Source: a bacterium | GTDB taxonomy: Bacteria; UBP18; UBA7526 | Direction of reading: 5' to 3' | DNA: 57,498 nt | Assembly: GCA_030615855.1 (NCBI GenBank) | Contig: JAUWYL010000005.1 | Span: forward strand, 1 to 57,498 | In this document: positions 154 through 57,423 of the stretch, piece by piece | How the letters are laid out: each line of letters opens with the position of its first letter | How positions within the stretch are numbered: position 1 is the stretch's first letter | Made by a program: the position numbers and the translations under genes | Notes under the pieces: generated by a model | Seen by the model: the letters and a program-made list of their open reading frames with translations, nothing else | Told to the model about the DNA's origin: nothing | Databases searched by the model: none

Positions 154-160
154 TTTTTTA

Positions 161-209
161 CTGTAAACTGTAAACTGGTTACTGTAAACTACCGAGTGAT
201 AACGAGGTA
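161..209. repeat. CTGTAAA/CTGGTTA heptamer array ending in a GA/GA mini-hairpin
   Basis: ctgtaaa-ctgtaaa-ctggtta-ctgtaaa followed by tacc-ga-gt-gata-ac-ga-ggta. Confidence 0.8.
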
Positions 210-213
210 TGAA

Positions 214-1113
214 ATGGCAGTAGATATTAAAAAGGTCCTTAGCAGTTTGAAGGAGAGAAAAGAGACCATGCTCGTCTGGGGATTGGGAGTCGTTGCCCTC
301 TCTCTAGGGGTTTTTATCCTCATCGGTTATATCAGAGGGGTCTCCCCTCCTCCCATCTTGGAGGTGGTTGTCAGAAGAAAGAAACCCCTGAAAAGCAAGG
401 AAGAGATCATTGCCCAGCTCAAGGAGGCCCAGAAGATACCTCCCTTTGTTGACTATCACCATATCCTGACCAAAAACCTCTTCATGCAGTCCAGAATGGC
501 CCGGATTGAAGGGGAGAGGATAGTAGGAGTAGGGGGTTTTGTCCTGAAGGGGATCATAGAGAGACCGGAAACGAGAAGAATCGCCGCCCTCATTCAGGAT
601 CCAGGAGGCAAGGCCCATATTGTGGAGGCTGGCCAGATGATTGGCACCAGTGAAGTGAAGGTAATGGCCATTGACTTCAAGAACCAGAGCGTGGCCCTCA
701 TGGGCAAGGGCTGGAAGAAGCCCCAGGTCATCAGGCTGGCCAGAGAAGCCCTGGGAGAGAAGGCCCTGATCACCTTCCGGCCGAGCGAAAAGAAGAAAGA
801 AGTAGAAAAGCCAAAGGAGGTCACAGGGGAGGAGGCGAAGAAGGCCATGGATGCTGCAAAACGGGCCATGAGTGAGGCCGACTCCAGCATTGTCGATGCC
901 TCTACGGCAACAGATACCTCGGAAGCCATAGAGGAAAGGGACGTTGCTAAAAAGAAGTTAGAGGAGGCTCAGGAAGCATATCTCACCAAGGACTATGCTA
1001 CAACGAGGGATCTGGCTCTTGAGGCGGAGAAGCTGGCCAAGGAAGCAGTGGAATTAGTGGAGGAAGCCGAGACAGAGGCAGAAGAAGAGGAAGAGGAGGA
1101 AGAAGAGGAATAA
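214..1113 (+). CDS. PilP/GspC-like inner-membrane pilus/T2SS assembly protein with charged helical, acidic tail
   Basis: N-terminal TM helix; FVLKGII...AALIQDPGGKAHIVEAGQMIG resembles the PilP/GspC HR domain; same operon as a secretin. ATG 214 follows GAGG. Confidence 0.55.
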   Translation: MAVDIKKVLSSLKERKETMLVWGLGVVALSLGVFILIGYIRGVSPPPILEVVVRRKKPLKSKEEIIAQLKEAQKIPPFVDYHHILTKNLFMQSRMARIEGERIVGVGGFVLKGIIERPETRRIAALIQDPGGKAHIVEAGQMIGTSEVKVMAIDFKNQSVALMGKGWKKPQVIRLAREALGEKALITFRPSEKKKEVEKPKEVTGEEAKKAMDAAKRAMSEADSSIVDASTATDTSEAIEERDVAKKKLEEAQEAYLTKDYATTRDLALEAEKLAKEAVELVEEAETEAEEEEEEEEEE

Positions 1114-1137
1114 AAGTGTGGAGAAAGGAGTAAAATC

Positions 1138-2355
1138 ATGATGAAGAAAATAGTATCAGGAGTTTTATTAATTCTATGGAGCCTTTTATTGAATGTTGCT
1201 ATTTTTGGAGCAGGGGAGGTAGTCGTCGTACCTGCCAGCCTGGATCACTTCTCGGTAACGGCACCCAGTGAGGTTACTGCGGGAAAGCTCTTCCCAGTAA
1301 CCATTACTGCTTGTGATTCCTTCGGGAATATAGTCACTGACTACCGCCTCTCTGGTAAGGGAGTGAAGATAACCACCAGCGGGATGGGGAAGATTGTCCC
1401 AGAGAGGATCGCTCCCTTAGAATTTAAGGATGGGGTAGCTCAGGTGAGCCTCACCTATGATCGGGCGCAGGATATCCTTTTCATCTCTACTGAGATAGAA
1501 GGGAAGGCCAGGGGGAGGAGCAATACCATAACCGTCCTTCCCTCCAAACTGGATCATTTTGTGCTTACCGTTCCCAGGGAGGCCAGGGCAGGGCAGGAGT
1601 TTACCATCTTCATCAGTGCCCGGGATGCCTTTGGGAATATTATCTCTGATTATTCCAGTAGAGGAAAGGAGCTCTCCCTCTTCGCTTCTGGGGAGGGGAG
1701 ACTCAATCCCTCCAAGGTAGAAGTTACCCAATTTAAAGAAGGGGTTACTTCCCTTAACCTCACCTACAATAAAGCTCAGAAGATCACCCTCACCTGTAAG
1801 GAGGAGGGAGAGAAGGCAGAAGGGGTTTCTTCTTCTCTGACCGTAAGGCCAGGGGTTTTCGATCACTTCCTCTTATCCTGTGCTCCTTCTGCCCGAGCCG
1901 GGAAAAGCTTCGAAGCCACCATTACTGCCTGTGATTCCTTCGGGAATGTGGTGACTGACTATCAAGCCACAGGGAAGGGAGCCCTTCTTTCCGTAACAGG
2001 AAGCGGAAAGCTCAATCCTTCCCAGATTCCTGCCTCTCAGTTTATAGATGGAGCGGCCAAGGTCAAGCTCTCCTATGACAGAGCAGAACCCATCACCATT
2101 AGTGCTAAGGAGGCTGTTCTAAAAGCAAGACCGGAGGTAAAAGAGGGGGTTTCCATCACTGTGGCAGGAAGGGAAGTCATGGTTGAGAGGATAGATGGGA
2201 TCAATGGCTGGGCCTACATCAGGGATGAGATAAGGTATGTCAACATCAGGATGGATAGCGATGTTCAAGATGTCTGGAGGGAGGTTCCCAGGGAAAAAAC
2301 CCCGGAGACCTACCAAGCCATTCAGAAACTCTTGAGGAAGAGAGGAGCTCAGTGA
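1138..2355 (+). CDS. Secreted protein with three Ig-like beta-sandwich repeats
   Basis: Signal peptide; three repeats of DHF.(V/L).(A/V)P....AG..F...I.A.D.FGN...DY. Confidence 0.6.
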   Translation: MMKKIVSGVLLILWSLLLNVAIFGAGEVVVVPASLDHFSVTAPSEVTAGKLFPVTITACDSFGNIVTDYRLSGKGVKITTSGMGKIVPERIAPLEFKDGVAQVSLTYDRAQDILFISTEIEGKARGRSNTITVLPSKLDHFVLTVPREARAGQEFTIFISARDAFGNIISDYSSRGKELSLFASGEGRLNPSKVEVTQFKEGVTSLNLTYNKAQKITLTCKEEGEKAEGVSSSLTVRPGVFDHFLLSCAPSARAGKSFEATITACDSFGNVVTDYQATGKGALLSVTGSGKLNPSQIPASQFIDGAAKVKLSYDRAEPITISAKEAVLKARPEVKEGVSITVAGREVMVERIDGINGWAYIRDEIRYVNIRMDSDVQDVWREVPREKTPETYQAIQKLLRKRGAQ

Positions 2356-3656: not shown

Positions 3657-4159
3657 TTAAGAAGATAGTAACTCTCTTTTTTATAATCGCTTTTATGGTG
3701 GGCACCCTCTGGGCAGAGGAGTCCATAGAACTGGAGATTAATTGTCCTGAAGAAACTAAAGACTCTCCAACTTCAGTGATTGAGATAATAGAAGAGGGGG
3801 AGATTTCAGAAGAGGAGCCAGTGGAAAAGGAGAAGAGGGAGAGTAGCCCCCTTCAGTTAAAGAAGAAATCCTCCTATCCCAAACTCCCTCTTTTGGAGCC
3901 CCTTCCCCTCTCTGGAATGAAGGCCAATAAAAAGATTATCTCCCGCCTGCTTAAAGATTTGAAGAGCAAAAACCCCGCCCTCCGCTGTTGGGCAGCAAGG
4001 AGCCTGGGAGAACTGGATATCCAGAAGGAGCGAGGCAAGGCAATAAGGGCTCTCAGAAAGGCCTTTAGGAAGGAAAAGCATCCTCAGGTAAAGGAAGCAA
4101 TAAAGGAGGTACTATTGAAATTAGAGGGCGAACTCCCAGAAACGAAGGCCTTTCTATGA
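3653..4159 (+). CDS. Exported HEAT-repeat protein
   Basis: Signal peptide; LLKDLKSKNPALRCWAARSLGEL HEAT/PBS-like motif; ATGA overlap with the upstream gene. Confidence 0.55.
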   Translation: MIKKIVTLFFIIAFMVGTLWAEESIELEINCPEETKDSPTSVIEIIEEGEISEEEPVEKEKRESSPLQLKKKSSYPKLPLLEPLPLSGMKANKKIISRLLKDLKSKNPALRCWAARSLGELDIQKERGKAIRALRKAFRKEKHPQVKEAIKEVLLKLEGELPETKAFL

Positions 4160-5061
4160 GATTAAAAAGAATACTACTCTTAGGTCTAATCTTCTCATTG
4201 ATTCAGACTTCAGCCTTACTTGCCCGAGTAGGCGATAGGCCCATGCCTGTAGGAGCCAGAGCTACCGGGATGGGGGGAGCCTTTGTCGCTGTGGCAGATG
4301 ATGCCTATGCCGCCTACTACAACCCAGCAGGGCTATCTCAGTTAAAGAGAAGAGAAGGAACAGTCACCTCTCTGGTAGATATGTCGACCAGAAATAAGTA
4401 CTTAGATTACGATGACATCGTCATCTATGCTAACCCAGATGAGAGGTATGGAGCCTGGGCAGGATGGTTTGTGGATAGCGGCTCACATCAGAAAGGAGCG
4501 AAGAAGCCAGAGTACTGGTACTGCTATTCCTATGGCAAGGAGGTTTTAAGGGGCCTCTCCTTGGGGGGCAACCTGCGCTATGTCTGGGGTAAAACCCGCC
4601 ATCCCAATGTGAGCGACCACGCTGGAGCCCTCGATCTCGCCCTTCTTTACCGTCCTGTTAGATGGTTTTCTGCTGGCTTCTTAATTCAGGATGTGAATGA
4701 GCCTGAGCATTGGAATGAGGAGTATGATATTAACTTTCGACCGGGAGTCGCCTTCCGTCCAGATAAACTGACCGTCATTGCCTGTGACCTATACGATGCT
4801 ACAGGAGAGACGGACGATACCTATCACGATGCCAGTCAGGATGTGAGAGTCGGCGTGGAGAGGTGGATTACAAAGCATAGGTACGTCGCTTTAAGGGGAG
4901 GGGCCTATCATCTTACTTCCCGGTATGAGGCCTATACTGGCGGTTTAGGTCTGAGGTTCGAAATAAATCAGATCGAATATAGGTTTGACTATGCCTACTT
5001 TGCTCACCAAAAAGGAGATGAGGAGGAGAGGCATTACTTGGGTCTTACCTTTGCCTTCTAA
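4156..5061 (+). CDS. Outer-membrane beta-barrel, PorV/PorQ (FadL-like) family
   Basis: PVGARATGMGGAFVAVADDAYAAYYNPAGL signature; alternating aromatic strands; C-terminal Phe. Confidence 0.75.
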   Translation: MRLKRILLLGLIFSLIQTSALLARVGDRPMPVGARATGMGGAFVAVADDAYAAYYNPAGLSQLKRREGTVTSLVDMSTRNKYLDYDDIVIYANPDERYGAWAGWFVDSGSHQKGAKKPEYWYCYSYGKEVLRGLSLGGNLRYVWGKTRHPNVSDHAGALDLALLYRPVRWFSAGFLIQDVNEPEHWNEEYDINFRPGVAFRPDKLTVIACDLYDATGETDDTYHDASQDVRVGVERWITKHRYVALRGGAYHLTSRYEAYTGGLGLRFEINQIEYRFDYAYFAHQKGDEEERHYLGLTFAF

Positions 5062-5080
5062 GAATTGAACGATAAATAAA

Positions 5081-5500
5081 TTGAGAATATTAATTACAGG
5101 ATTGATAGTGGGAATGACCTTAATGGGAGGTGCCTGCTCTGGGACCCAGTCCAGAGGGAAAGTAATAACCGAGAAGAAAGTACCGGTGGTGAAGATAGGG
5201 AACCTGAAGAAGAACCCTTCGCTCTATTTAGGTAAAACGGTAACTGTAAAAGGGGAATATCGTGGCTGGAAGGCAGAGTGTGGTCCCCCTCCCGTAACTC
5301 GTAGCGATTGGGGAGTAAGGGATGAGACGGGCACCATCTATGTTACCGGGAAGCCAGCTTCTCATCTCGATCCTTATAAAGACATTGGCAGGAAAATTAC
5401 AGTAACCGGAACCTTTCATTTGAAGAAAAATCCCTATGCCCATCTTAAAATAGAGAATATTCCGTATATTAAGGCAGTGAAAATTGAAATAGGGAAATGA
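5081..5500 (+). CDS. Lipoprotein with OB-fold-like domain
   Basis: Hydrophobic leader ending GGAC; NPSLYLGKTVTVKG...DETGTIYV OB-like pattern. Confidence 0.5.
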   Translation: MRILITGLIVGMTLMGGACSGTQSRGKVITEKKVPVVKIGNLKKNPSLYLGKTVTVKGEYRGWKAECGPPPVTRSDWGVRDETGTIYVTGKPASHLDPYKDIGRKITVTGTFHLKKNPYAHLKIENIPYIKAVKIEIGK

Positions 5501-5503
5501 GAA

Positions 5504-5583
5504 GTGAACCCCGTTAGAGATGACAGAATAAATTTAGATGTAAATTACGGTCGCCTTGGGCGACCTATCTCTAACGGGGTGAA
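5504..5583. mobile_element. Miniature inverted-repeat element inserted at a start codon
   Basis: 14-bp perfect IR accccgttagagat (5508-5521) / atctctaacggggt (5567-5580); flanking GTGAA duplication; internal hairpin ggtcgcc-ttg-ggcgacc. Confidence 0.7.
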
Positions 5584-7156
5584 GAAGTATTGGATAGGAA
5601 TCATACTATTGGTACTTTTAGTAGCAGTTCCGGTTACTGCTTATTCCGATGCCTGGACATTCATGGTCTATCTCGATGGGGACAATAACTTGGAATCGGC
5701 TGCCATCGATGATTTCTTAGAGATGGCAGAAGTGGGCTCTGATATTAATGTCAATATCATCGTTCAGATGGATCGGGTATCTTTTGAAGTTTTAGATGCT
5801 ATTGGCCAAGGAGCATATGATGACACCAGCTACGGTAATTGGACAACGACAAAGAGGTTTCGTGTTGACTTGGATAGTACCCCGGTTGATAGCGACTCTG
5901 GTTTTATCTCTGATGAGGGTGAGTTGAATATGGGTGATCCCAATACCCTGAGCGACTTTGTAGACTGGGCAACTACCACTTACCCGGCAACCAATTATGC
6001 CCTAATCCTCTGGAATCATGGCGGCGGCTGGAGAGATGCGATAAAGGCTAAGGGGCTGAATAAAGATGCAATAAAGGCCATCTGCTGGGATGAGACAGAT
6101 AATGCCGATTGCCTCTATATGAATGAGGTGAAGAGCGCTCTCCTGAATATTACAGAGCATATGCACCTCATTGGCTTCGATGCCTGCCTGATGGGAATGA
6201 TAGAGGTTGCCCATCAGATATATAGTTATGGAAGCGTTATGGTTGGTTCTGAAACGATTGAGCCCAATGATGGCTGGCCATATGATACCATCCTCAGTGC
6301 AACCAATGGTTTAGTGAAAAATCCAAACTGGACAGCGAATCAACTGGGTGACTGGATAGTAGATACTTATATAGCCCAGACTGCTGCTGCATATAAAACT
6401 CAGTCAGCCATAGACCTTACAAAGATTAACGCCCTAGCCAGCGCTGTGGATAGCTTTGCCCAGGCATTGGGATATGACTCGGATATAGCAAACGCCCGGG
6501 CAAATGTTGAGGACTATTATTATCCGGCACATATTGACCTCTATCACTTCGCCTATCTCTGTAAGCAGTATAGTTCTAATTCAACCATCGATTCTCGCGC
6601 CCAGACAGTAATGGATAACGTCACCAGCGCGGTTATTACTGAGGGCCACGGCACTGACCATCCTAACTCTCATGGATTGGCCATCTATTTTCCCTCGACT
6701 GAAGCATCTTACGACAGCGATTATGGCACGCTCAGCATTAACTCTTTCGCTACTACCAATTGGGATGAGTTCTTGAGTAACTATTATAATCAGGTTGCTC
6801 CTCCGGGAGGAGACGGAGGGACAACGGGCACTGGAGGGGGAGGAAGTAGTGGTGGTAAAGTCTGCTTCATCGCTACAGCTGCCTACGGCAGCTACACGGA
6901 TGAGCACGGATTGATTACGGATTCTCACGGATCACCGATCACTGTTTTACAGAAATTCCGGGATGAATATCTCTTGACCAATGCCCCAGGAAGGGCCTTC
7001 GTCTCCTATTACGAAAGGATGAGCCCACCCATAGCAAGATACATTGAGAATAAAGAAGCCTTAAAAGCTATTATAAGATTTTATCTCAAACCAGTAGTCT
7101 GGTTGACTAAGAAAGTAACAAGTAATCCGTCTGTGACGGAAACATTGAACAATTGA
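5579..7156 (+). CDS. Clostripain-family (C11) cysteine peptidase with CFI-box-CTERM sorting domain
   Basis: [33 protein letters not shown]; Gly linker then [10 protein letters not shown]...FRD...FVSYY..SPPIA. The upstream in-frame GTG 5504 comes from the inserted element. Confidence 0.85.
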
Positions 7157-7196
7157 GGATTAAAAAATATAAAGATGATAGAGGAGGAAAAGAAGA

Positions 7197-9179
7197 ATGA
7201 GGAAGAATTTAAGAAGATGGCTGATTAGTCTAACACTATTGGCGACTCTGAGTTTAGGGATTGGTCTGGCTCTGGCACAGGAAGAAGAGGCATATTCACC
7301 AGAGGAGGTTGTTCCGATTGTCGAACCTGTAGCTCCGGTACCTGTCAAGCCGACCAACGCTGTTCAGAGCATAGAGGTTGTAGATCTGCCGGAGAAGGTG
7401 AGGATTATTATTACTACCACCCAGCCGGCGGAGTATATCATTGGCAAGGTATATAAGCCAAAGATGCTCTATGTGGACATTCTGAATTCGGTGAATGACC
7501 TTCCCAAGAGAAGGTTCCGGGTGAAGAAGGGACCAGTAAAGAGAATCAGGTCCAGTCAGTATCAGGTCCTTCCCACAGAGATCTCAAGAATTGTGGTAGA
7601 CCTTGATAGGTGGGTCAAACACGAGATAGCCAGGGAGGAGAATAAGTTATACTTAGAATTCTATAAGCCAGAAGTTCTGATTGCCAAGGCCCCACCAGAG
7701 GAGAAGGCCCCTCCTGAAGAAGAGAAAGTTCCTCCTGAAGAAGAGGAGAAGGTTCCCCTTCTTGAGGAGAGGCTGATCAGCGTTTCCTTTACTGATGCTC
7801 CCATGTCTGCGGTATTGAGCTTCTTAGCCGAGATGAGTGGCTACAATATCGTGGCCAGCGCTGAAGTAACTGCCGCGACGGTGACCATAACCCTCAAGGA
7901 TGTTCCGGTCATGACCGCCCTGAATACCATCCTGGAGATGCAGGGCCTGTGGTATAAGAAAGAGAAGAATATCATAAGGGTCATGACCATAGGGGAGTTC
8001 CAGGCCACTTTAGCGGTAAAGGCCGATTTAACCCGGGTATTCGTCCTCCAGCATGCCGATGCCGCAGGCTTAGCTGAGGTTCTGAATAGTGTCCTGGGAG
8101 GAGCAGTAATAAAGAAGGTACCCACAAAAGTTAGCCTCCGCGTTACTGAAAAGAGGGCTGGTGAATTCGCGAGAGCCGTTCAAGCCGCGAAGACCCTTCA
8201 TTTTAAGGGGAAGACCTTCGTCATCGCGGATGTGAGGACAAATTCTTTGATCATCACCACCGATGACCCCAGGAACTTCCTGATGCTTGAGAGGCTAATA
8301 AAGGAACTGGATACCGAGATCCCCCAGGTCCTCTTAGAAGTCATGATTGTTGAGGTGACCCTTGGCCCGGATGATACCAATATTGGTCTGCAGTGGGTCT
8401 GGGGAGATGTCAACCTCCCTGGTGGTCTCGATGGGGTGATGCACTGGGATGAGTTCGATGAGGGGACGGTGCCTGGGGTGACCGGAGCTGATACTGAGGA
8501 CCTCTACACTACAGAGCGTGGCCAGTATAAACTCATTCTCTGGAATGAGCATGTCAAAATACTCTTCCAGGCCATGCAGGAGACCCATAAGGTGGATGTC
8601 CTCTCCACTCCCAGGATTCTCACCCTTAACAACCAACCAGCGATGATTCAGGTAGGTTATGAGTATCCCGTGGTCATAGATGATGACTGGGTCTATAAGG
8701 ATATCGGGATAATCCTGAATATTACTCCTAAGATCAATGAGGCGAAGTTTGTCAACCTCAGCCTGAATCAGGAGATCACAGAGATCTATGGAACGAACAT
8801 CTATGGACTTCCCATATTCTCAAAGCGGATCCTAGAGTCCAGTGGCCTGGTGAAGGATGGTTATACCCTGGTTATTGGAGGACTGATCAAGACCTCCAAG
8901 ATAGATGCCGAGTATATGATTCCCTGGTTGGGTAAGATACCGGGATTGGGTTATCTCTTCAAGAGGAAGGAGAAGAGGACGGAGAATGTGGAGATCATGA
9001 TGTTCATCACTCCCTATGTTCTCACCAGCCCGGGAGAAGGGACGAGGGTGTCCAGGAAACAGGCAAGGGACCTCTCCACAGGGAAGGTCTCAGATAAGGA
9101 CATTCGTGTTCCAGAGGCAAAGATCGAGATACCGGAATTAGAAGAGGCCGAGATACCAGAGATAGAAGAGAAGAAGTAG
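7197..9179 (+). CDS. pilQ: Type IV pilus/T2SS secretin (PilQ-like) with AMIN and N domains
   Basis: Signal peptide; AMIN domain; N0 (ISVSFTDA...); DVRTNSLII; QVLLEVMIVE; STPRILTLNNQPAMI; IPWLGKIPGLGYLFK. Confidence 0.8.
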   Translation: MRKNLRRWLISLTLLATLSLGIGLALAQEEEAYSPEEVVPIVEPVAPVPVKPTNAVQSIEVVDLPEKVRIIITTTQPAEYIIGKVYKPKMLYVDILNSVNDLPKRRFRVKKGPVKRIRSSQYQVLPTEISRIVVDLDRWVKHEIAREENKLYLEFYKPEVLIAKAPPEEKAPPEEEKVPPEEEEKVPLLEERLISVSFTDAPMSAVLSFLAEMSGYNIVASAEVTAATVTITLKDVPVMTALNTILEMQGLWYKKEKNIIRVMTIGEFQATLAVKADLTRVFVLQHADAAGLAEVLNSVLGGAVIKKVPTKVSLRVTEKRAGEFARAVQAAKTLHFKGKTFVIADVRTNSLIITTDDPRNFLMLERLIKELDTEIPQVLLEVMIVEVTLGPDDTNIGLQWVWGDVNLPGGLDGVMHWDEFDEGTVPGVTGADTEDLYTTERGQYKLILWNEHVKILFQAMQETHKVDVLSTPRILTLNNQPAMIQVGYEYPVVIDDDWVYKDIGIILNITPKINEAKFVNLSLNQEITEIYGTNIYGLPIFSKRILESSGLVKDGYTLVIGGLIKTSKIDAEYMIPWLGKIPGLGYLFKRKEKRTENVEIMMFITPYVLTSPGEGTRVSRKQARDLSTGKVSDKDIRVPEAKIEIPELEEAEIPEIEEKK

Positions 9180-9245
9180 TAGAGATTTCAGCGAACGGTT
9201 GCCTGTATTAGGGGTGTGGATGGGTCGTGAGTAGTGGGTCGGGGA

Positions 9246-9315
9246 TGAGTTGTGTGGATGGGGATATATTCCCCACCCTCACCCCCACAACCCGACTCAC
9301 AACACACAACTCACC
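9246..9315. repeat. About 70-bp GT/AC-rich hairpin element, copy 1
   Basis: Near-identical reverse-complement copy at 55042-55112. Confidence 0.75.
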
Positions 9316-9370
9316 CTTATCCCCGATGACTTAAGTAACCCTTCAACGTATAACGTAAAAGGAGGAGTTT

Positions 9371-11821: not shown

Positions 11822-11847
11822 AGGGGGAGAAATCCCCCTCTTTTTTT
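11822..11847 (+). terminator. Rho-independent terminator-like hairpin
   Basis: aggggga-GAAA-tccccct followed by cttttttt. Confidence 0.6.
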
Positions 11848-12778: not shown

Positions 12779-13375
12779 ATGTCCTTTTCTTCTGGTCAGA
12801 GAGTGGTGGTTATCATCCTTTTCCTGGCTTTTCTCTCTGGAGGAGGGGTTTTGGGCTATAGAATTATGAAGGAGTATCCAGAAATTACTTCCCAGCAGAT
12901 AGAAGTCTTCCCTGAAATTACCCCCCCACCTATTACTCCCCCACCTATTATTCCCCGACCTATTGAAGAACCGGTCTCACCCAGACCAGTAGTGGTGACA
13001 GAGAAGACTCCCATCAGGAAACTGGCGAGAAGGGAGAAAGAAAAACTCCAGAAGGCCTTGAAGATAAATATCAATACCGCCTCTTTAGAAGAATTGCAGA
13101 AGATACCCTATATCGGTTCTAAAAGGGCAGAGAAGATTATCAGTGGCCGACCCTACCAAAGTATTGAAGATATAATGAATGTTCATGGGTTTGGGGAAAA
13201 AACCCTTGAGAAGATAAAGGATTACATTACCGTTACCGGCAAGGGATTAGCGGAATATAAGCCTCCCGCGGAGAGGGTTAAATCTATAGAAGAAAGTAAA
13301 AAGAAGGTAAAAATCGTAAAAGTAGATACTGATGGGGATGGCATTCCCGATACCTGGGTCACCAAGCCCCAATAA
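12779..13375 (+). CDS. ComEA-like helix-hairpin-helix DNA-binding protein
   Basis: TM anchor, Pro-rich linker, KININTASLEELQKIPYIG...V.GFGEKTLEKI; C-terminal DTDGDG. Confidence 0.85.
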   Translation: MSFSSGQRVVVIILFLAFLSGGGVLGYRIMKEYPEITSQQIEVFPEITPPPITPPPIIPRPIEEPVSPRPVVVTEKTPIRKLARREKEKLQKALKININTASLEELQKIPYIGSKRAEKIISGRPYQSIEDIMNVHGFGEKTLEKIKDYITVTGKGLAEYKPPAERVKSIEESKKKVKIVKVDTDGDGIPDTWVTKPQ

Positions 13376-13488
13376 ATAGTAGGAGAGTAAAAGAGTAAGA
13401 AAGTAGGAAAGTAGGCATTTCAATTGGAAAATTAGCACTTTTCTACTTTCCTTCTTTTATACTTTCTTACTCCCGAACGGAGTGAGGG
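13376..13488. repeat. Inverted 8-mer (AAAGTAGG / TTCTACTT-like) arrays plus GA/GA hairpin
   Basis: Purine-rich arm then pyrimidine-rich arm; ends atactttcttactcccgaacggagtgagg, nearly identical to 45232-45259. Confidence 0.75.
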
Positions 13489-13492
13489 TCAA

Positions 13493-14578: not shown

Positions 14579-14596
14579 AAAGGAGGTCTAACGGGA

Positions 14597-14835
14597 ATGA
14601 ACCCCGCACCTCCTACTGTATTTATCATATTTATCTTTTGAAAATAGAAGAAGCAAGAACTGGATTGAGTTTACGCCGTTTAGACTCTAATCTACCAACA
14701 TATGAGAATAACTAATCTATTTAGAGTCGGTATCAAAACTATTGGAAAAACTACAGAACGATATTTGAGAGTCTAACGGGGTTTACTAAGTATAATACAG
14801 AATCTTATTGAATCATAAGGGAGGTGCGGGGTGAA
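14597..14835. mobile_element. Nested miniature inverted-repeat elements at a start codon
   Basis: Outer 13-bp IR accccgcacctcc / ggaggtgcggggt with TGAA duplication; inner element 14674-14781 with TTTA duplication. Confidence 0.7.
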
Positions 14836-15457: not shown

Positions 15458-15498
15458 CACGGATCATCGCGGATTACAACACGAATAGGCACAGATTC

Positions 15499-15563
15499 AT
15501 CTGTGGCAATGCTTAACTATTTATGCTCTCTAGGATGCTAACGAAGTGCATCCTATAATCTGT
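15499..15563. repeat. About 65-bp duplicated element, copy 1
   Basis: Second copy at 16389-16453; contains hairpin taggatgc-N9-gcatcct. Confidence 0.75.
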
Positions 15564-15617
15564 GATATTTTGCCCACGCAGGAGACATACTCAAAATCCG
15601 CGTTTAAGGAAGAGGAA

Positions 15618-16253: not shown

Positions 16254-16388
16254 ACGCGAATCCACGCGAACTGGAAAGCAAAGACGAAAGACAATTAGGA
16301 CACGAATGAGCGCGAATAGTAGATACTGGATGCTGGATCCTTGATCCTTGATCCTTATCCTTGGTTACGTCTGTCTTTTAGATCTGTG

Positions 16389-16453
16389 ATCCGTGGCAAT
16401 GCTTAACTATTTATACTCTCTAGGATGCCAGCGAAGCGCATCCTGTAATTTGT
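16389..16453. repeat. About 65-bp duplicated element, copy 2
   Basis: Matches 15499-15563 with a few substitutions. Confidence 0.75.
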
Positions 16454-20396: not shown

Positions 20397-20520
20397 GCCC
20401 CGAAGGACAAGCCTACGGGGCAGGCAGGTGAAATAGTGAAACGGAGAAGGGGGGAAACGGAGAAAGGGAGAAGAATTACCGATTCACCGTCTCTCCGATT
20501 CCCCGATTCAAAAAAGCGGG
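20397..20520. repeat. CCCCG..CGGGGCAGGCAGG hairpin plus inverted 8-mer arrays (AAACGGAG / CCGATTC)
   Basis: gccccg-N13-cggggc-aggcagg flanked by GTGA; related to 44635-44673. Confidence 0.65.
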
Positions 20521-23430: not shown

Positions 23431-23882
23431 AAGGAGTAAGGAATAAGGAATAAGGAGTAAGGAGTAAGTAGGAAGTGATGGAAAAGAAGGTAAGAAAGGT
23501 CGAAGATCTCTTAGTTTACCAGAGAGCGATGAAACTCTTTGATGAATTCATGGAAGAAGACCTTCCTCTTTTGAGTAAACATTTTGCGGGAAGGGAATTG
23601 GCCAGACAGCAGGTAAGAAGCCTTGATTCCATCTGTGCCAATATGGAGGAAGGCTTTGGGAGAAAAGCAGGCAAGGAACATAAAAATTTCTTCCGGATAT
23701 CAAGAGGTTCTACAGGCGAGAGTAAGGGAAGATATAGAAGATGCAAAAAATTCTTATCCCAGAAAACAATAGAGAAAAGAGTAGGACAATTGAGTGAAAT
23801 CCAAGCTATGCTCAATTCCCTACTAAGCAAACTAAGGGATTAGCCCTTTCACTTACTACTTGTTACTTACTACTTACTACTT
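23431..23882. mobile_element. Four-helix-bundle cassette bounded by inverted heptamer arrays
   Basis: (TAAGGAR)n at 23431-23474 and (CTTACTA)n at 23852-23882 flank the ORF. Confidence 0.55.
23475..23843 (+). CDS. Four-helix-bundle protein (23S rRNA IVP / TIGR02436-like)
   Basis: EDLLVYQRA...QVRSLDSICANMEEGFGR....F..ISRGS..E. Confidence 0.9.
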   Translation: MMEKKVRKVEDLLVYQRAMKLFDEFMEEDLPLLSKHFAGRELARQQVRSLDSICANMEEGFGRKAGKEHKNFFRISRGSTGESKGRYRRCKKFLSQKTIEKRVGQLSEIQAMLNSLLSKLRD

Positions 23883-28373: not shown

Positions 28374-28497
28374 GGTTACTACGCTTCGCTGTTACTACCA
28401 GTTACTACGCCCCGCTGAAGACGGGACTGTTACTAACAGTTGCCTTTGTAACTTCTCGTAACCGATAGTAACCGATTAGTAACCTTTAGTAACCGAT
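28374..28497. repeat. Inverted ~10-mer GTTACTA/TAGTAAC array, copy 1
   Basis: Begins ggttactacgcttcgctgttacta, identical at 35253 and reverse-complemented at 53802-53824. Confidence 0.8.
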
Positions 28498-28521
28498 ACC
28501 TACTTAAAGGAGGAAAAAGAA

Positions 28522-29784: not shown

Positions 29785-30552
29785 ATGAAGTTAATTGATC
29801 TTACTCAGCCTTTGAGTGTTTTGACACCTGCCTGGCCAACCTATGAACCATTGCAGGTGAAGTTCTTCAAAAGGTTGGCTCCCAACGGGGCCAATGGACA
29901 ATTGATCACTACTTCCAACCATGTGGGGACCCACTTAGATGGGGCATTACACTTCTGCACCCATGGAAGGGATATCGCCTCCATTCCCTTAGAGGACTTA
30001 TATGGCGAGGCAGCGGTAGTCGACCTCTCGGATATGGCAGAGGATTATGGTATCTATACCTCTAAAGATATTACTGACCGGATAGAGGTGAAGAAGAAAG
30101 ATATTTTAATCATCAATACTGGATACCATAGGTATGCCTGGGATCAGCCAGAGGCGGATGAGGTGAGATATATGTGCAAGCATCCCGGTCCTACTATAGA
30201 GTTCGCTGAATGGTGCAAGAAGATGGAGATTAAATGGATCGGGGTTGACTGCGGCTCAGCGGACCATCCCATGAATACCAAGATAAGGGACTGGATGCCT
30301 CGTTTAGCCAGGGAGTGTAACGAATACTTTAAGAAGAAATATAAGAAGAGCATTGAAGAGATCTTCCCTCCCGACCATTATCAATTGATGCACATTCAAT
30401 TATTTCCCCACGACATCATCCATGCTGAGAACTTAGGGGGAGAGATAGATAAGATATTGAATAAGAGGACCATCGTGGGCTGCTTCCCCTGGAGGTTTAT
30501 GGGAGGAGAATCGGCATTCTGTAGGATAGTAGCCTTCGAAAAAGAAGGTTAA
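29785..30552 (+). CDS. Cyclase / kynurenine-formamidase-family metal hydrolase
   Basis: HVGTHLDG motif, GVDCGSADHP, HAENL. Confidence 0.85.
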   Translation: MKLIDLTQPLSVLTPAWPTYEPLQVKFFKRLAPNGANGQLITTSNHVGTHLDGALHFCTHGRDIASIPLEDLYGEAAVVDLSDMAEDYGIYTSKDITDRIEVKKKDILIINTGYHRYAWDQPEADEVRYMCKHPGPTIEFAEWCKKMEIKWIGVDCGSADHPMNTKIRDWMPRLARECNEYFKKKYKKSIEEIFPPDHYQLMHIQLFPHDIIHAENLGGEIDKILNKRTIVGCFPWRFMGGESAFCRIVAFEKEG

Positions 30553-30624
30553 TATCGGTTAAAAACGGTTATTAACCACTATTAACTGATATTAACTGTT
30601 ATTAACTTTAGAACAGGAGGAATC

Positions 30625-31362: not shown

Positions 31363-31473
31363 GCAAGCGGGAAAGTGAGCAGGTGATCGGTGATCAGTGA
31401 TCAGTAATCGGTCTATCTGTGCTAATCCGTGTTGTTATCCGTGATAATCCGTGTTAGAAAGGAGGAATCTAAA

Positions 31474-32483: not shown

Positions 32484-32545
32484 CTTCAATGCAACCACGG
32501 ATTAGACGGATTAGACAGATTTAAAAATCCGTGGAAATCTGTGAA
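32484..32545. repeat. Inverted 9-mer arrays (ACGGATTAG / AATCYGTG)
   Basis: aaccacggattagacggattagacagat...atccgtggaaatctgtgaaatctgtggtt. Confidence 0.75.
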
Positions 32546-32581
32546 ATCTGTGGTTATCTATCTTGTTTTTTTGGAAATTTT

Positions 32582-35252: not shown

Positions 35253-35385
35253 GGTTACTACGCTTCGCTGTTACTATCGGTTACTACGTCCCGATAAAAT
35301 CGGGACTGTTATTACCGGTTGCTTCTGTAGTAGTCATTTGTAACTGTTCGTAACTGATAGTAACCATTCGTAACTGTTAGTAACC
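35253..35385. repeat. Inverted ~10-mer GTTACTA/TAGTAAC array, copy 2
   Basis: Same 24-nt start as 28374; carries hairpin gtcccgat-aaa-atcgggac. Confidence 0.8.
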
Positions 35386-38364: not shown

Positions 38365-38480
38365 GTTACGTTTATCGGTTGCGTCTTTTTACGAACGACG
38401 ATAGACGATAGCCGAAACGAGCCGCGTAACCGTTCAACGTAGAACGGAAGACGGATTTTATACTTAATAGGGGAACAAAG

Positions 38481-40411: not shown

Positions 40412-40532
40412 TATGGGTAATGGGATGTGAGATGTGGGATTTGGGATTTTTTATCGCACATCACATATCACACATCGCCTTTATCTATCTTCCCCTATTT
40501 TTTTACTGTTCACAGATCACAGTTCACAGATT
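40392..40532. repeat. Two-layer nested inverted heptamer arrays
   Basis: Outer cagtgat/cagtaat...ctgttca/cagttca; inner gggatgt/gagatgt...atcgcac/atcacat. Confidence 0.7.
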
Positions 40533-43806: not shown

Positions 43807-43867
43807 TAATCAAACTGTTAACTGGTTACTGTTAACTGGTTACTGACCGAACGATAGTGAGGTCACC

Positions 43868-45139: not shown

Positions 45140-45259
45140 GAAGTAATAAAGTAGGAGAGCAGAAGAGAAGAAAAGTAGGAACTGAAAGAGACAAAGCCAA
45201 AAGAGAAATACTTTCTTACTTTCCTACTTTGATACTTTCTTACTCCGAACGAAGTGAGG
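45140..45259. repeat. Inverted 8-mer arrays plus GA/GA hairpin (same family as 13376-13488)
   Basis: aaagtagg...ctttcttactttcctacttt...ccgaacgaagtgagg. Confidence 0.75.
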
Positions 45260-45264
45260 TAAAG

Positions 45265-46290: not shown

Positions 46291-46376
46291 TTTACAGTAA
46301 CCAGCGAACAGTAACCAGTCTTTTCTATTCACTTCACTGTAAACTGGTTACTGGTTACTATCCGAGCAAAGCGAGG
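46291..46376. repeat. Inverted CAGTAAC/CTGGTTA arrays plus GA/GA hairpin
   Basis: tttacag-taaccag-cgaacag-taaccag ... ctgtaaa-ctggtta-ctggtta, then ccgagcaaagcgagg. Confidence 0.8.
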
Positions 46377-46381
46377 GTGAA

Positions 46382-51533: not shown

Positions 51534-51712
51534 AAATGCGAATAATTGTGAATATAAAATGGGAATAATAAACTGGGACGCGAATACTCGCGAATTTATT
51601 CGCGTAGTTTCGCGGTTTTTTTTAGATTCGCGTTGCTTTCCGCCAAATCCGTCCGACCGTCCGGAAGAGACGGACGGACGGAGCGGACAGGCGTGTCTGA
51701 GCGGAGCGAAGA

Positions 51713-53698: not shown

Positions 53699-53842
53699 GG
53701 CTACAAACGGCTACAAACGGTTACTAACGGTTACGAATTTGGTTACTAACAGTTACTAAAAATTGTGGCAACCGATAGTAACCGCGAAGCATAGTAACTA
53801 ATAGTAACAGCGAAGCGTAGTAACTAGCGACTGAAGGGAGCT
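53699..53842. repeat. Inverted ~10-mer GTTACTA/TAGTAAC array, copy 3 (opposite orientation), plus GA/GA hairpin
   Basis: tagtaacagcgaagcgtagtaac at 53802-53824 is the reverse complement of 28375-28397. Confidence 0.8.
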
Positions 53843-53846: not shown

Positions 53847-54950
53847 GTGAAAGCGACTTTTCCCCATGTGGGAAGGATGGATATCTTCATAAAGGGAATG
53901 ACTAAGGCCTTAGGCATGGAGGCTGTAGTTCCTCCCACAAACTCCAAGAAGGCCTTGAACTTAGGGGTAAAGTATGCTCCGGAGTTCGTCTGCCTACCCT
54001 TCAAGTTAATGCTCGGGAATCTGATAGAGGCCTTAGAGAAAGGGGCAGATACCATTATCTTAGTCAGTGATAGAGGTCCCTGCCGTTTAGGATTATATGG
54101 ATTACCTCTACAGATCATATTAAAGAACTTAGGATATAAGTTTAATTGGGTCACTTTGGATAGCCCCCAGGCTATAAAGAGCTCCTTCCAGTTGGGGATG
54201 ATAAAGGGAGTAGAGAAGTATCGGGATAAACTTACCTTCATGGATGGATTACTCGCCTTCCACTTCGGCTGGAAGAAGATGCTCGCCACAGAAGAAATTG
54301 AGAGGCTCTCCTTAAAGATTAGACCCTATGAGATAAACAAAGGGGATACCACAAAGGTCTTCTATCAGGGGATGAGAGCAATTGAAGAGGCAGAGAATCT
54401 ATACGATCTGAAGAAAGCAAAGAATAAGGCGATAAGGAATTTGAAAAACATCTCTCAGGATAGGAGCAGAAAGCCCCTTAAGGTAGCTATCGCTGGGGAA
54501 ATCTTCGTCGTCCTGGACTCCTTCGCTAACTTGGATATTGAGAAGAAACTGGGAGAACTGGGCTGTGAGGTGGATAGAACCATATGGTTCTCCACCCATA
54601 TCTTGCATCATCTGGGACTGGATAAGTTCATGAGAAAGAGCAAGAGGAAAGCCATCCAGGCAGCAAGGCCCTATCTCAAGTATCATGTGGGTGCAGAGTG
54701 TAATGCCACCGTAGGATATGCCATTCTATATGCCAAGGAGGGATACGATGGCTTCATTCATCTTATGCCCTTCACCTGTATGCCGGAGTTTGTGGCCGGT
54801 GGGGTCTTGACCCGGGTGAGCAAGGACTATGACATTCCCATATTCACTGTGGAACTGGAGGAGCACTCCTCCCAGACCCATCTCATGACCAGATTAGAGG
54901 CCTTTGTCGAATTGTTAAAGCGGCGACGGAATCAGCGAAGTAACCAGTAA
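53847..54950 (+). CDS. 2-hydroxyacyl-CoA dehydratase-family / CoA protein activase-associated protein
   Basis: TFPHVG, APEFVCLPFK, GPCRLGLY, PFTCMPE, TRLEAFV. Confidence 0.75.
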   Translation: MKATFPHVGRMDIFIKGMTKALGMEAVVPPTNSKKALNLGVKYAPEFVCLPFKLMLGNLIEALEKGADTIILVSDRGPCRLGLYGLPLQIILKNLGYKFNWVTLDSPQAIKSSFQLGMIKGVEKYRDKLTFMDGLLAFHFGWKKMLATEEIERLSLKIRPYEINKGDTTKVFYQGMRAIEEAENLYDLKKAKNKAIRNLKNISQDRSRKPLKVAIAGEIFVVLDSFANLDIEKKLGELGCEVDRTIWFSTHILHHLGLDKFMRKSKRKAIQAARPYLKYHVGAECNATVGYAILYAKEGYDGFIHLMPFTCMPEFVAGGVLTRVSKDYDIPIFTVELEEHSSQTHLMTRLEAFVELLKRRRNQRSNQ

Positions 54951-55252
54951 CCAGTTAACAGTTTACAGTAAAAAAATAAGAGAGCATCAGATAACCAGAT
55001 TATTAGATAAAGAAAGACAGATATCAAAATACCAGGATAAAGGTGAGCTGTGGGTTATGTGTCGGGTTGTGGGGGGTGAGGGTGTAGAATATATCCCCAT
55101 CCACACAACTCACTACCCATCCCTACCCTCAATCAATCTGGGATTCTGAATTCTTATTCTGAGACTCTGATGTTCTGATAATCTATAATTTTGCTGGTTA
55201 CTGTTCGCTGGTTACTGTAAACTATCTAGACTGATCACCGTTCACTGATTAC
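54939..55252. repeat. Three-layer nested inverted-repeat region
   Basis: Outer CAGTAAC/CTGGTTA arms, middle CAGAT/TCTG arms, inner 70-bp element shared with 9246-9315. Confidence 0.75.
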
Positions 55253-56236: not shown

Positions 56237-56240
56237 AAGT

Positions 56241-56328
56241 AGGCTACAGGCTGCAGGCCACATGCTACAGGCTGCAAAAACTTGAAGCCTGGGGCTTGAG
56301 GCTTGAGGCTTGAGAGAGCGGAGCGAAC
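56241..56328. repeat. CAGGCTR / GCTTGAG heptamer arrays plus GA/GA hairpin variant
   Basis: aggctac-aggctgc-aggccac-atgctac-aggctgc ... gcttgag x3, then gagagcggagcgaac. Confidence 0.7.
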
Positions 56329-56329
56329 G

Positions 56330-57313
56330 ATGGCCATCAAAGTAGGCATTCCCAGGGCCCTTTTATACTATCGTCTCTATCCTTTTTGGAAGACATTCTT
56401 CAGTTCTTTAGGAATAGAGGTAATAGTCTCGGGCAGGACCACTAAGAAATTATTGAAAGAAGGCCTGAAGTATGCGCCGGATGAGGCCTGCCTATCGATA
56501 AAGGTAGCCTTCGGCCATGTGCAAGACCTAATGGACAAGGTGGACTATCTCTTTCTACCAAGATTGGTAAGCCTGGAAAGGGGGACCTACATCTGCCCCA
56601 AGTTCATCGGCTTTCCGGATATGATAAGGAGTGCTTTTGATAACCTCCCCCTTTTAATCGATACCTCCTTTAACCTGAGGAGAAGGCCAAGCAATTTATT
56701 TTTTCCTATGTATCGGGTAGGAAGAATCTTTAAAAGGTCCTTTCTTTCCATCTATGGGGCATATAAGAAGGCTTTAGAGGAGGAATCTAAATACCTATCA
56801 TCTCTTCGTAAAGGCAACCTACTTCCCGGGGTCCTTTCTAGTTGGGAAAAGAAAAGAGCTCTCAGACCATCCAATCCCAAAGGGAATCTCTGCATCGCTT
56901 TAGTCGGCCATCCCTATAATCTCTATGACTCCTTTGTCAATCTCAATATCATTAAGAAGTTAGAGGATCTGGGTGCCAGAGTAATTACCCCGGAGATGGT
57001 GTCTCCTCTCGAGATTAAGAAAGAAGCAGACAAGATTCCCCAGGAGGTCTACTGGAGCCTGGGAAGAGAAATCGTGGGAGCGAGCTTCTATCTCCTGGAA
57101 TCGAAGTCCATAGATGGTATGATTCACCTGGGCTCCTTTGGCTGTGGTCCGGACTCCTTCCTAAGGGAATTGATAGCTGATAGAGCAAGAAAGCATCAAG
57201 AGATCGCCTATCTCTCCCTCATCCTTGATGAGCATACTGGGGAGGCAGGAATAGTCACAAGATTAGAGGCCTTCATTGATTTGATTCAGCGGAGACGAAT
57301 GCTCAAGAGTTAA
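56330..57313 (+). CDS. Acyl-CoA dehydratase activase-related protein (DUF2229-type)
   Basis: VGIPRALLYY, ACLSIK, CPKFIGFPD, GHPYN, FGCGPD, DEHTGEAG..TRLEAF. Confidence 0.8.
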   Translation: MAIKVGIPRALLYYRLYPFWKTFFSSLGIEVIVSGRTTKKLLKEGLKYAPDEACLSIKVAFGHVQDLMDKVDYLFLPRLVSLERGTYICPKFIGFPDMIRSAFDNLPLLIDTSFNLRRRPSNLFFPMYRVGRIFKRSFLSIYGAYKKALEEESKYLSSLRKGNLLPGVLSSWEKKRALRPSNPKGNLCIALVGHPYNLYDSFVNLNIIKKLEDLGARVITPEMVSPLEIKKEADKIPQEVYWSLGREIVGASFYLLESKSIDGMIHLGSFGCGPDSFLRELIADRARKHQEIAYLSLILDEHTGEAGIVTRLEAFIDLIQRRRMLKS

Positions 57314-57419
57314 CAGTTTACAGCGAACAGTTAACAGTGAAAAAACTGGTTACTGTACACTGGTTACTGGTTACTCTCCGAACGGAGCCCTGAACCGTAC
57401 GGTTCAGGGCGGAGCGGGG
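57309..57419. repeat. Inverted CAGTTAA/CTGGTTA arrays plus a hairpin interrupted by a 24-bp palindrome
   Basis: gttaaca-gtttaca-gcgaaca-gttaaca ... ctggtta-ctgtaca-ctggtta-ctggtta; palindrome gccctgaaccgtacggttcagggc. Confidence 0.8.
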
Positions 57420-57423
57420 AACT

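Follow-up and report, generated by a model that had tools for sequence, protein, structure and literature searches.

A possible cassette system of repeat-armed hairpins in the operon spacers of a UBP18-lineage bacterium, resembling rRNA intervening sequences

The window analyzed here is the whole of a 57,498-nucleotide stretch of contig JAUWYL010000005.1 from a bacterium of the UBP18 lineage. Every credible gene lies on the + strand, which is purine-rich and has positive GC skew and AT skew. The genes are those of housekeeping functions (polA, coaE, rho, prfA, prmC, murA, his and trp genes, purA and a secretin gene), along with five comEA paralogues accompanying comEC and genes for tRNA-Lys, tRNA-Glu and tRNA-Val; a scan of the window with Rfam returned the three tRNAs only and no rRNA. 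Between these genes lie some twenty elements of a single class, each a long and imperfect inverted repeat with arms made of 7-10-nt tandem units. At least one copy, and probably a second, carries a gene for a four-helix-bundle (4HB) protein of family PF05635, and this design, a repeat hairpin with a 4HB gene, is the same as that of the intervening sequences (IVSs) of 23S rRNA that bear an open reading frame (ORF).

An earlier note on this DNA had claimed repeats in about 20 intergenic gaps. Tandem Repeats Finder gave 82 rows for the window, and merging of overlaps left 35 arrays with a period of 6-11 and at least 2.8 copies. Intergenic DNA makes up 4261 bases (7.4% of the window) and holds 24 of the 35 arrays, while the 53237 coding bases hold 11, most of which are purine codon repeats or contact a gene end. 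Array density is therefore 5.6 per kb in intergenic versus 0.21 per kb in coding DNA, a 27-fold excess (binomial p 1.4e-19). The intergenic arrays have mostly a period of 7 (n = 14), followed by 8 (n = 5), 10 (n = 4) and 9 (n = 1). Together with the printed gaps, these results place degenerate 7-10-nt arrays at or beside every coordinate given in the earlier note, the calls being weak at 15458, 38365 and 51540, and all of the units it named (CAGTAAC, AAAGTAGG, ACGGATTAG, GTTACTA, GGGATGT and CAGGCTR) are present among at least five unrelated unit families. Head-to-tail units of 5-11 nt, beyond chance and mainly intergenic, are what defines long simple-sequence repeats (LSSRs) and short tandemly repeated repetitive sequences (STRRs), and the arrays of the window are of this kind.

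In the typical element, an array is followed by a short loop and an array of its rough reverse complement, and together they fill the space from a stop codon to the next ribosome-binding site (Table 1). The complementary right arm described in the earlier note was found in 17 pairs but not at 31382-31455, where the two arrays are not complementary, nor at 154-195 and 43813-43845, which have single arms. The possibility that the arms are no more complementary than shuffled controls did not hold: the duplex energies of the 17 cognate pairs add up to -489 kcal/mol, permuted pairings give -232 +/- 41 kcal/mol, and 0 of 10000 permutations were as low. Few non-cognate arms paired as well as cognate ones, all of them from the same unit family. 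At the DNA level, the arms of the 17 pairs are 67-81% complementary, and the purine-rich arm comes first in 13 of these hairpins. When 30 gaps were folded as RNA and compared with dinucleotide shuffles, 10 had a z-score between -3 and -5.4. Arrays are also present in the gaps at 15458 and 16254, yet their folds are no better than those of shuffles (z -0.5 and -0.3). As the note had stated, the elements sit within operons, here co-directional ones, without breaking genes.

Table 1. Repeat-armed elements and associated features of the window (4HB, four-helix bundle; z, fold z-score; pairing rank, rank of the cognate arm pairing)
Feature	Positions	Strand	Remarks
3' end of second 4HB (PF05635) gene, cut by window edge	1..153	+	ORF; Pfam profile positions 63-106
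Single right-arm-type array, ACTGTAA, 4.4 copies, after the 1..153 gene	160..190	+	Partner arm would be outside the window
Long hairpin, G/T-rich then C/A-rich	9210..9325	+	Between secretin and TPR genes; gap z -4.1
Empty hairpin, arms AGTAGGAA / ACTTTTCT	13378..13472	+	Followed by small hairpin and next gene's ribosome-binding site; z -5.4
Array, GATCCTT, 4.1 copies	16336..16363	+	Gap without significant hairpin, likewise gap 15458-15545
Empty hairpin, arms GAAACGGA / ACCGATTC	20438..20510	+	Gap z -3.0; pairing rank 1
Left purine-rich arm of filled cassette, AAGGAGT, 5.4 copies	23431..23470	+	
Cargo: 4HB protein gene	23475..23843	+	122 aa
Right pyrimidine-rich arm of filled cassette, ACTTACT, 4.6 copies	23851..23882	+	Followed by seven T
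Empty hairpin, GTTACTA / TAGTAAC family	28374..28498	+	Inner G+C hairpin; 88% over 59 nt to 35253-35311
Compact hairpin, GGTTAAAAAC / TATTAACTGA units	30547..30610	+	Family of the L001 polA-coaE element; z -3.7
Two adjacent non-complementary arrays, GGTGATC and AATCCGTG-type	31382..31455	+	z -1.1
Short hairpin, ACGGATTAG / AAATCTGTG	32497..32552	+	Extends to annotated polA start; pairing rank 1
Empty hairpin, GTTACTA / TAGTAAC family, period 10	35253..35385	+	Between polA and coaE; z -5.1
Degenerate hairpin upstream of prfA	38365..38450	+	Absent in L001 and L005
Hairpin GGGATGT / ATCACAC and further array TCACAGA	40415..40531	+	z -3.2
Single array, ACTGTTAACTGGTT, 2.3 copies	43813..43845	+	Same site: full two-armed hairpin in L001, none in L005
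Empty hairpin, AAGTAGG / TACTTTCT family	45140..45246	+	z -3.0
Empty hairpin, CAGTAAC / ACTGGTT	46294..46361	+	
Two hairpins, CGCGAAT-type and CCGTCCG-type	51534..51712	+	After tRNA cluster; z -3.3
Empty hairpin, GTTACTA / TAGTAAC family	53719..53826	+	z -3.1
Three nested hairpins, three different unit families	54939..55226	+	z -3.5
Empty hairpin, AGGCTAC / CTTGAGG	56241..56316	+	z -2.6; pairing rank 1
Empty hairpin, AGTTAAC / ACTGGTT	57308..57377	+	
CTCC-GAAC-GGAG-type mini-hairpins	13455-13492, 45235-45260, 46355-46381, 43840-43867, 57370-57395		

The filled cassette has the arms that the earlier note had placed around the 4HB ORF. They are 81% complementary over 31 nt (rank 2 of 17), and 6 of 7 positions pair between the AAGGAGT and ACTTACT heptamers. 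In the minimum-energy fold of the whole 481-nt cassette (23422-23902), the arms close across the ORF (z -3.0, with 0 of 100 shuffles as good), so that the gene is enclosed by stem-forming terminal inverted repeats like the ORF of an IVS. The cassette does not lie in a 23S rRNA gene (helix 25 or 45) but between protein-coding genes, where it interrupts an allH-fdrA-x-allG operon between fdrA and the allG-side genes. The right arm noted earlier behind the ORF ending at 153 was also recovered as an array of right-arm type. That ORF scores 20.1 bits against PF05635 (E 7.5e-4), which is under the curated cut-off because the ORF is a fragment.

The complete 4HB protein (23475-23843) matches TIGR02436 with 59.2 bits (cut-off 24) and PF05635 with 57.6 bits (cut-off 33.8), and has 218 homologues at E<=1e-5 among 355 candidates. 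In an alignment of 25 homologues, R48, S52, N56 and E59 are invariant or nearly so, in agreement with RxxxSxxxNxxE, given as the conserved family motif in the available part of PMC3936711. Its AlphaFold2 model has four helices (pLDDT 93.2), and Foldseek matched the model to 2GSC (Xcc0516; TM 0.82-0.86), to 2RLD (BT_0352; TM 0.63-0.79) and, more distantly, to the Avd proteins 4DWL and 8UB7 of diversity-generating retroelements (DGRs; TM about 0.7-0.79). The kinship of the family to DGR bAvd, as claimed in the earlier note, thus agrees with the matches of the predicted structure. Searches of the PDB by sequence, with either the protein or a profile of 25 sequences, gave no match at E<=0.01, and it is the predicted fold that ties the protein to 2GSC, 2RLD and Avd. 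The locus is not a DGR, as there is no reverse transcriptase (RT) in the window and the neighbors are metabolic genes of the allH, fdrA and allG type.

An association of 4HB genes with repeat arms, which the note had proposed as genome-wide, extends well beyond the window: inverted complementary arms flank 17 of 24 4HB genes, compared with a control rate of 5%. A gene was counted when the inverted complementarity of its flanks was higher than in every one of 200 shuffles and also above the 95th percentile of 246 pairs of control windows taken from these loci. The 24 genes are 22 plasmid genes, one gene from a Syntrophobacterales locus (L021) and the gene of the window. In a plasmid collection searched by tblastn, the window protein retrieved 5 records and a Nostoc 4HB protein 46, of which 41 were new; all 5 and 17 of the 41, picked for taxonomic spread before the flanks were seen, gave 22 loci, and with one near-duplicate removed and one locus holding two 4HB genes, 22 genes at 21 loci remained. 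The flanks of the 4HB genes contain 36 arrays in 6498 nt (5.5 per kb), versus 39 in the 109502 nt elsewhere in the same loci (0.36 per kb). A purine-rich arm lies upstream of the gene in 21 of 24 cases, and the repeat units differ in almost every case, with more than 10 unit types. Four phyla have 4HB genes inside repeat arms, and at 13 of the 18 plasmid loci with two annotated neighbors, both neighbors are on the strand of the 4HB gene. Repeat-armed 4HB genes are found on finished plasmids of cultured Nostoc, Calothrix, Geminocystis, Stanieria, Picosynechococcus, Leptolyngbya, Riemerella, Gemmatirosa and Azospirillum.

One of the 17 armed genes is an unannotated 4HB locus of Azospirillum lipoferum (L080), which Rfam places within a 23S rRNA gene and which is therefore a classical IVS; one side of its stem is made of GAGGACG-type heptamers and the opposite side of their complement. 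The PF05635 ORF of L021 is truncated (E 3e-20, covering profile positions 2-62) and lies between arrays of AAGACAC-type (14 copies) and GTCTTGA-type (9.6 copies). One 4HB protein occurs at two sites on plasmids of Nostoc PCC 7120 with the same right arm at both, and the unit type is unchanged in a Stanieria homologue that is 45% identical to it. In the cyanobacterial plasmid loci L082, L092 and L094, the 4HB gene lies inside a cas operon (cas6-4HB-cas4 or cas10-4HB-cmr3) and has repeat arms of its own, which suggests an inserted passenger rather than a cas component. The available text of PMC3936711 reports 18 such genes, called 23S_rRNA_IVP, in cas loci, between cas6 and cas4 or between cas10 and cmr3, and there and in the accessible part of PMC10910872 they are read as having a possible CRISPR-linked function; the published association may reflect passenger insertions.

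A profile built from close homologues of the window protein and run against 10197 six-frame ORFs (the window and 79 polA loci) found the query alone at E<=1e-3, and at E<=50 it added L021, which is real and confirmed by Pfam, and otherwise false matches such as SmpB. This profile is too narrow for the 79 loci to be a fair census of 4HB genes. Similar short arrays, some of them in inverted pairs, occur in Desulfobacterota and Omnitrophota loci and are rare or absent in most of the other loci.

Comparison with relatives showed that the elements come and go. A scan with the PolA protein, keeping one genome per species, identified five syntenic relatives, L001, L003, L004, L002 and L005, with PolA identities of 97-86% and DNA identities to the window, over the aligned parts, of 90.8, 87.5, 84.2, 85.4 and 82.9%, respectively. 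With DNA identities of 83-91%, they are sister species and not strains. The spacers are not identical in all relatives, an outcome that would have spoken against the earlier note; presence and absence alternate at several sites, and the 4HB cassette itself is absent in L003, whose spacer at this junction is a different one, about 130 nt long and devoid of a 4HB gene. Between coaE and rho, the window and L001 have the same empty 24-nt spacer, while L003, L004 and L002 have hairpins of 123, 125 and 183 nt with similar outer arms and different nested inner layers. Between polA and coaE, five genomes have hairpins of 107-165 nt and L005 has 38 nt without repeats. The spacer upstream of prfA measures 116 nt in the window and 260 nt in L002, where it consists of other arrays, and in L001 and L005 the genes overlap at this site; the murA-hisD and prfA-prmC junctions overlap in the window and bear arrays in L001 and L002.

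The two arms also change together. In the polA-coaE spacer of the window, L003 and L004, the left arm has GTTAC three to four times and the right arm GTAAC two to five times, and in L001 the left arm has GTTAA and the right arm TTAAC four times; this is a concerted, compensatory G-C to U-A swap through both arrays. Copy number differs between relatives in steps of one unit.

Closely similar stretches occur at non-orthologous sites as well. Within the window, the elements at 28374, 35253 and 53792 (reversed) are related at 88-94% over 33-59 nt. The array at 160-190 matches 54945-54975 in reverse orientation (97% over 31 nt), and a second copy of the 9210-9325 hairpin forms the inner layer at 55042-55132 (9246-9322 against 55035-55112 reversed, 90% over 78 nt). 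The 13378-13472 hairpin, whose cognate duplex has -36.3 kcal/mol, has a right end 91% like 45217-45259. Across species, the 38 nt at window 55189-55226 recur unchanged at a different junction of L001 (12456-12493), the genes of the two genomes being only 91% identical, and the 46294-46361 hairpin shares 29 nt at 100% with both 55194-55222 and L001 12461-12489, each reversed. The 30547-30610 hairpin, which has TAACTGA-type units at 30580-30607, matches L001 3837-3873 (92% over 37 nt), and the 38365-38450 element matches L002 6237-6294 in reverse (88% over 58 nt), again at non-orthologous sites.

These observations have to be weighed against in-place slippage, in which the arrays would be ordinary long simple-sequence repeats with heptamers favored by the polymerase, the inverted copy would arise by local template switching, no cassette or shared mobility would exist, and the 4HB gene would be an unrelated small gene that landed or survived in permissive spacers. 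Over-representation of heptamers and its explanation by slippage are in print (Mrazek 2007, cited in the available part of PMC4679880; likewise PMC4692102, also available in part). The one-unit steps between relatives, the variation of units from site to site, stems without an RNA-type wobble bias and a window without a mobilizing enzyme are all as slippage would have it. However, independent local slippage would hardly yield identical or nearly identical stretches of 29-78 nt at sites that are not orthologous, be it within the window or across species, and at clean operon junctions elements of 100-180 nt are present or absent as a whole. Arms also travel with the gene, as at the two Nostoc PCC 7120 sites and in the Stanieria homologue, and the 4HB association far exceeds its control rate. 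We consider slippage alone an unlikely account, though the main rival.

The hairpins could also be an assembly artefact at repetitive spacers, given that the relatives are metagenome-assembled genomes and that one L005 spacer contains a run of N. The identical architecture on finished plasmids of cultured bacteria, and its experimental description for Coxiella in the available part of PMC4990558, leave practically no room for this explanation.

Hairpins between co-directional genes might instead be intra-operon terminators, attenuators or stabilizers of 3' ends like repetitive extragenic palindromes (REPs); the right arm of the 4HB cassette runs into its T tail, and a classical terminator does exist at 11822-11839. 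On the + strand, no scan site fell on a repeat stem except for the inner small hairpins at 35288 and 51600, for which reason intrinsic terminators were rejected as a candidate, and the scan totals were 36, 18 and 15 sites where shuffles predicted 24.8, 23.6 and 20.0. Stems of the elements are long and A+T-rich, are 67-81% paired and mostly lack a T tail, and there is no conserved REP consensus, so that a function of this type is extremely improbable. 

Another view is that the motif copies are cis-regulatory sites recruiting an RNA- or DNA-binding protein that tunes translation or transcript fate of the flanking genes, with the inverted layout serving as a switch between bound and paired states; the recruited protein might be the pentameric 4HB protein itself or one of S1, Csp or CsrA type. 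Avd-type 4HB proteins are nucleic-acid-binding cofactors, and the predicted fold of the 23475 protein matches Avd. The arrays of the window stop just before ribosome-binding sites, with a consistently purine-first polarity, and PMC4679880, in its available part, proposes such a role for the TAACTGA heptamers that Beggiatoaceae have immediately upstream of start codons. The units, with more than 10 types around 4HB genes, are nevertheless too different for one regulator, and any regulatory role is dispensable, as sister species have housekeeping operons without an element at the same junction. We therefore judge a cis-regulatory explanation to be quite unlikely.

The arms, then, are specifically complementary, and elements have been gained, lost, nested, replaced and dispersed to non-orthologous sites. 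Taking all of this together, we lean toward reading them as IVS-like hairpin cassettes that are gained and lost in operon spacers, mostly empty and sometimes carrying a 4HB gene, with an RNase III step proposed by analogy. In this proposal, an element would be co-transcribed with its host operon and its arms would form a double-stranded RNA stem. By analogy with rRNA IVSs, RNase III might cut that stem, which would make the insertion tolerable and free the cargo mRNA, while the purine-rich 5' arm could give the cargo a Shine-Dalgarno-like sequence. Empty hairpins may be decayed or non-autonomous relatives, the arrays could evolve by slippage within arms and template switching between arms, and the agent of movement would lie outside the genes of the window.

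A number of observations weigh against this cassette reading. None of the 52 window proteins scanned is a mobilizing enzyme, in line with the statement in the earlier note that no transposase or RT is encoded here. Comparison of filled with empty sites revealed no evident target-site duplication or conserved end motif. The cutting of operon cassettes is argued only from the analogy with rRNA IVSs, and the stem mismatches of the 17 pairs (26 G:U-type on the + strand, 19 on the - strand, 78 transversions and 23 gaps) show no G:U excess on the transcribed strand (26 versus 19), 78 of 123 mismatches being transversions. Because there is no asymmetry between G:U and A·C in the stems, RNA-level selection for pairing is not claimed; the imperfect stems fit palindromes formed at the DNA level and then decaying, with homogenization faster within an arm than between arms, and such an origin with decay accounts for the mismatches equally well. 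The limits of the 17 arm pairs were set by hand from Tandem Repeats Finder rows, printed gaps and folds. In the metagenome-assembled relatives, repeats can be mis-assembled. The plasmid sample covers 17 of the 41 new records and is heavy in Nostocales, where heptamer repeats are common anyway. Lastly, 7 of the 24 4HB genes have no inverted arms: L082, L101 and L098 have direct arrays on both sides of the gene, L088 and L089 have only a right arm beside an insertion sequence, the arms of L091 are weak and L100 has none. A left array that matches the right arm of L089 is located beyond an ISL3 gene.

A bolder version of the cassette reading would make the elements retro-mobile, with arrays made or copied by a nucleic-acid-templated process and the Avd-like 4HB protein as a cofactor. 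The panhandle RNA of a cassette released by RNase III would be bound by its own 4HB pentamer, which would recruit a host RT or polymerase as Avd does, and cDNA with reiterative copying of its ends would be inserted at hairpin loops or operon junctions. This version fits the nesting at hairpin apices, the polarity with respect to transcription and the fact that both arms change in concert. The RT that it needs was not seen among the 52 window proteins, and we regard it as very unlikely. If it were true, rRNA IVSs, cyanobacterial STRRs, the inverted heptamers of Xanthomonas and the "CRISPR-associated" 4HB genes would all be traces of a single retro-mobile family, widespread and not recognized before.

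Some side observations concern the elements themselves. Directly 3' of many right arms there is a small hairpin of CTCC-GAAC-GGAG type, followed by a ribosome-binding site (GAGG), and the mini-hairpin words GCGAAGC and GCTTCGC occur as variant units scattered inside GTTAC-family arrays. Within prmC, positions 39846-39881 (36 nt) are a perfect in-frame array of 5.1 AATTACC units a short way upstream of the DLGTG motif of the methyltransferase; at this array the L001 and L002 orthologues of PrmC have other lengths, and they are only 76-78% identical, versus more than 90% for neighboring genes. A second small repeat, with ends CCCCGTTAGA and TCTAACGGGG, occurs in the window at 5509-5579, 14587-14781 and 47891 and in relatives at about 990 (L001), 5400-5520 (L005) and about 4000 and 14850 (L003). 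At the annotated start of ORF 5504-7156 it is present as an inverted pair, and in the 14579-14830 gap it makes up a unit of 190 nt. As the end of a second element, TCTAACGGGG was rejected, as its count of 8 window copies, with one mismatch allowed, was matched by 3 of 100 shuffles. In L002, a 1.7-kb insertion (3719-5412) separates two genes that are 15 nt apart in the window and L003; it opens with a left-arm-type array, has no right arm, and carries a GYF-domain membrane protein gene, a nucleotidyltransferase gene (DUF6036/NTP_transf_5) and a small ORF upstream of the latter. In Nostoc punctiforme pNPUN01 (L087, 117-1371), a 4HB cassette with AAGTCGG / ACTTCCG arms lies directly upstream of xisH-xisI; in the available part of PMC4679880, TAACTGA repeats and XisH/XisI are described as having similar taxonomic distributions.

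Others concern the neighboring genes. From 12779 to 17969, the five ComEA-like paralogues and two extra genes for the ComEC C-terminal (metallo-beta-lactamase) part stand in a row before the full comEC, and the upstream regions of two comEA genes share a 36-57-nt stretch at 91-97% identity. The apparent gap after rho (37298-37510) is the start of a small gene conserved in L001, L002, L003 and L005, which by its sequence may be rpmE-like. At 7172-8156, L002 has an extra gene between udp and a PD-(D/E)XK/Cas4-like gene; of this extra gene the window (31474-31598) keeps only about the first 100 nt, fused to the start region of the Cas4-like gene, so that an internal deletion seems to have taken place.

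For some thirty years, three puzzles have been treated separately: the origin and spread of rRNA IVSs, the nature of the abundant heptamer repeats of cyanobacteria, Xanthomonas, Beggiatoaceae and others, and the role of the very common stand-alone PF05635 proteins. Our findings suggest that these are faces of one type of repeat-armed hairpin cassette, located in operon spacers or in rRNA and with or without a 4HB gene. The questions become testable in cultivable hosts such as Nostoc, Xanthomonas and Bacteroides, caution is advised before 4HB genes in cas operons are taken for CRISPR components, and the cassette reading explains assembly breaks and strain variation at spacers of this kind.

Among known systems, the rRNA IVSs of Leptospira, Coxiella and Alphaproteobacteria are like the window cassette in having a PF05635/S23p ORF inside terminal inverted repeats that form a long stem, and heptamers in the 5' arm (GACAGAT in Coxiella; GAGGACG-type on both sides in Azospirillum). 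Both have a sporadic distribution, an unexplained origin and an ORF prone to decay, as in the truncated ORF of L021. The available part of PMC4990558 reports that RNase III excises rRNA IVSs, that the Coxiella IVS has 2-3 GACAGAT heptamers upstream of the S23p ORF with a cleavage site at the first repeat, that its ORF is decaying and that the origin and mobility of IVSs "remain unclear"; it also cites an old proposal that the ORF encodes a mobility component. Unlike rRNA IVSs, the elements of the window are hosted by mRNA operon spacers instead of helix 25 or 45 of 23S rRNA, and one genome has many empty copies, nested copies and many unit families.

REPs and their composites, bacterial interspersed mosaic elements (BIMEs) and REP doublets forming hairpins (REPINs), as well as MITEs (miniature inverted-repeat transposable elements), are likewise small, non-coding, palindromic, intergenic, multi-copy, tolerated in operons and variable between relatives. 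In contrast to them, the elements of the window have no single consensus, no REP-associated tyrosine transposase (RAYT) or other transposase and no visible target duplication, and their arms are internally tandem-repetitive with turnover of units. REP or REPIN was thus rejected, there being several unrelated unit families and no transposase among the scanned proteins. Of the features of MITEs, inverted ends are present, no duplication is evident at junctions blurred by 9-17% divergence, and no autonomous partner was seen.

The Avd protein of DGRs has a four-helix bundle homologous to that of the 23475 protein, and PF05635 is the commonest family adjoining DGR RTs (PMC10053308); unlike in a DGR, the window has no RT, template repeat or variable repeat, and the 4HB gene is alone inside its hairpin. 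The reading of 23S_rRNA_IVP as CRISPR-associated likewise differs from what is seen at L082, L092 and L094, with their own arms.

The cyanobacterial STRRs, LSSRs, TAACTGA repeats of Beggiatoaceae and GGGAATC repeats of Xanthomonas share with the window intergenic 7-nt arrays of strain-variable length. Intergenic heptamer arrays are already in print (PMC4679880 and PMC2700814, each in its available part), and for Xanthomonas 70-75 convergent (inverted) heptamer-array pairs are described in the available part of PMC4692102, a text in which the words intervening, S23, four helix and xcc0516 are all absent. In the portions of these papers available, and unlike here, arrays are seen as stand-alone repeats (G-quadruplexes, translational sites). 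Within the full-text literature, outside which most subscription journals and supplements lie, no paper reports PF05635 genes generally within inverted short-tandem-repeat arms, and within the same scope none equates stand-alone heptamer hairpins with rRNA IVSs, which leaves room for an earlier statement; outside this scope are the supplements to PMC4679880, PMC4692102 and PMC2700814, whose lists of repeat-flanking genes might already show 4HB neighbors. What is new here is the link of heptamer arrays to a cargo gene and to the IVS, and an IVS-type element that resides in mRNA operons and is mostly empty.

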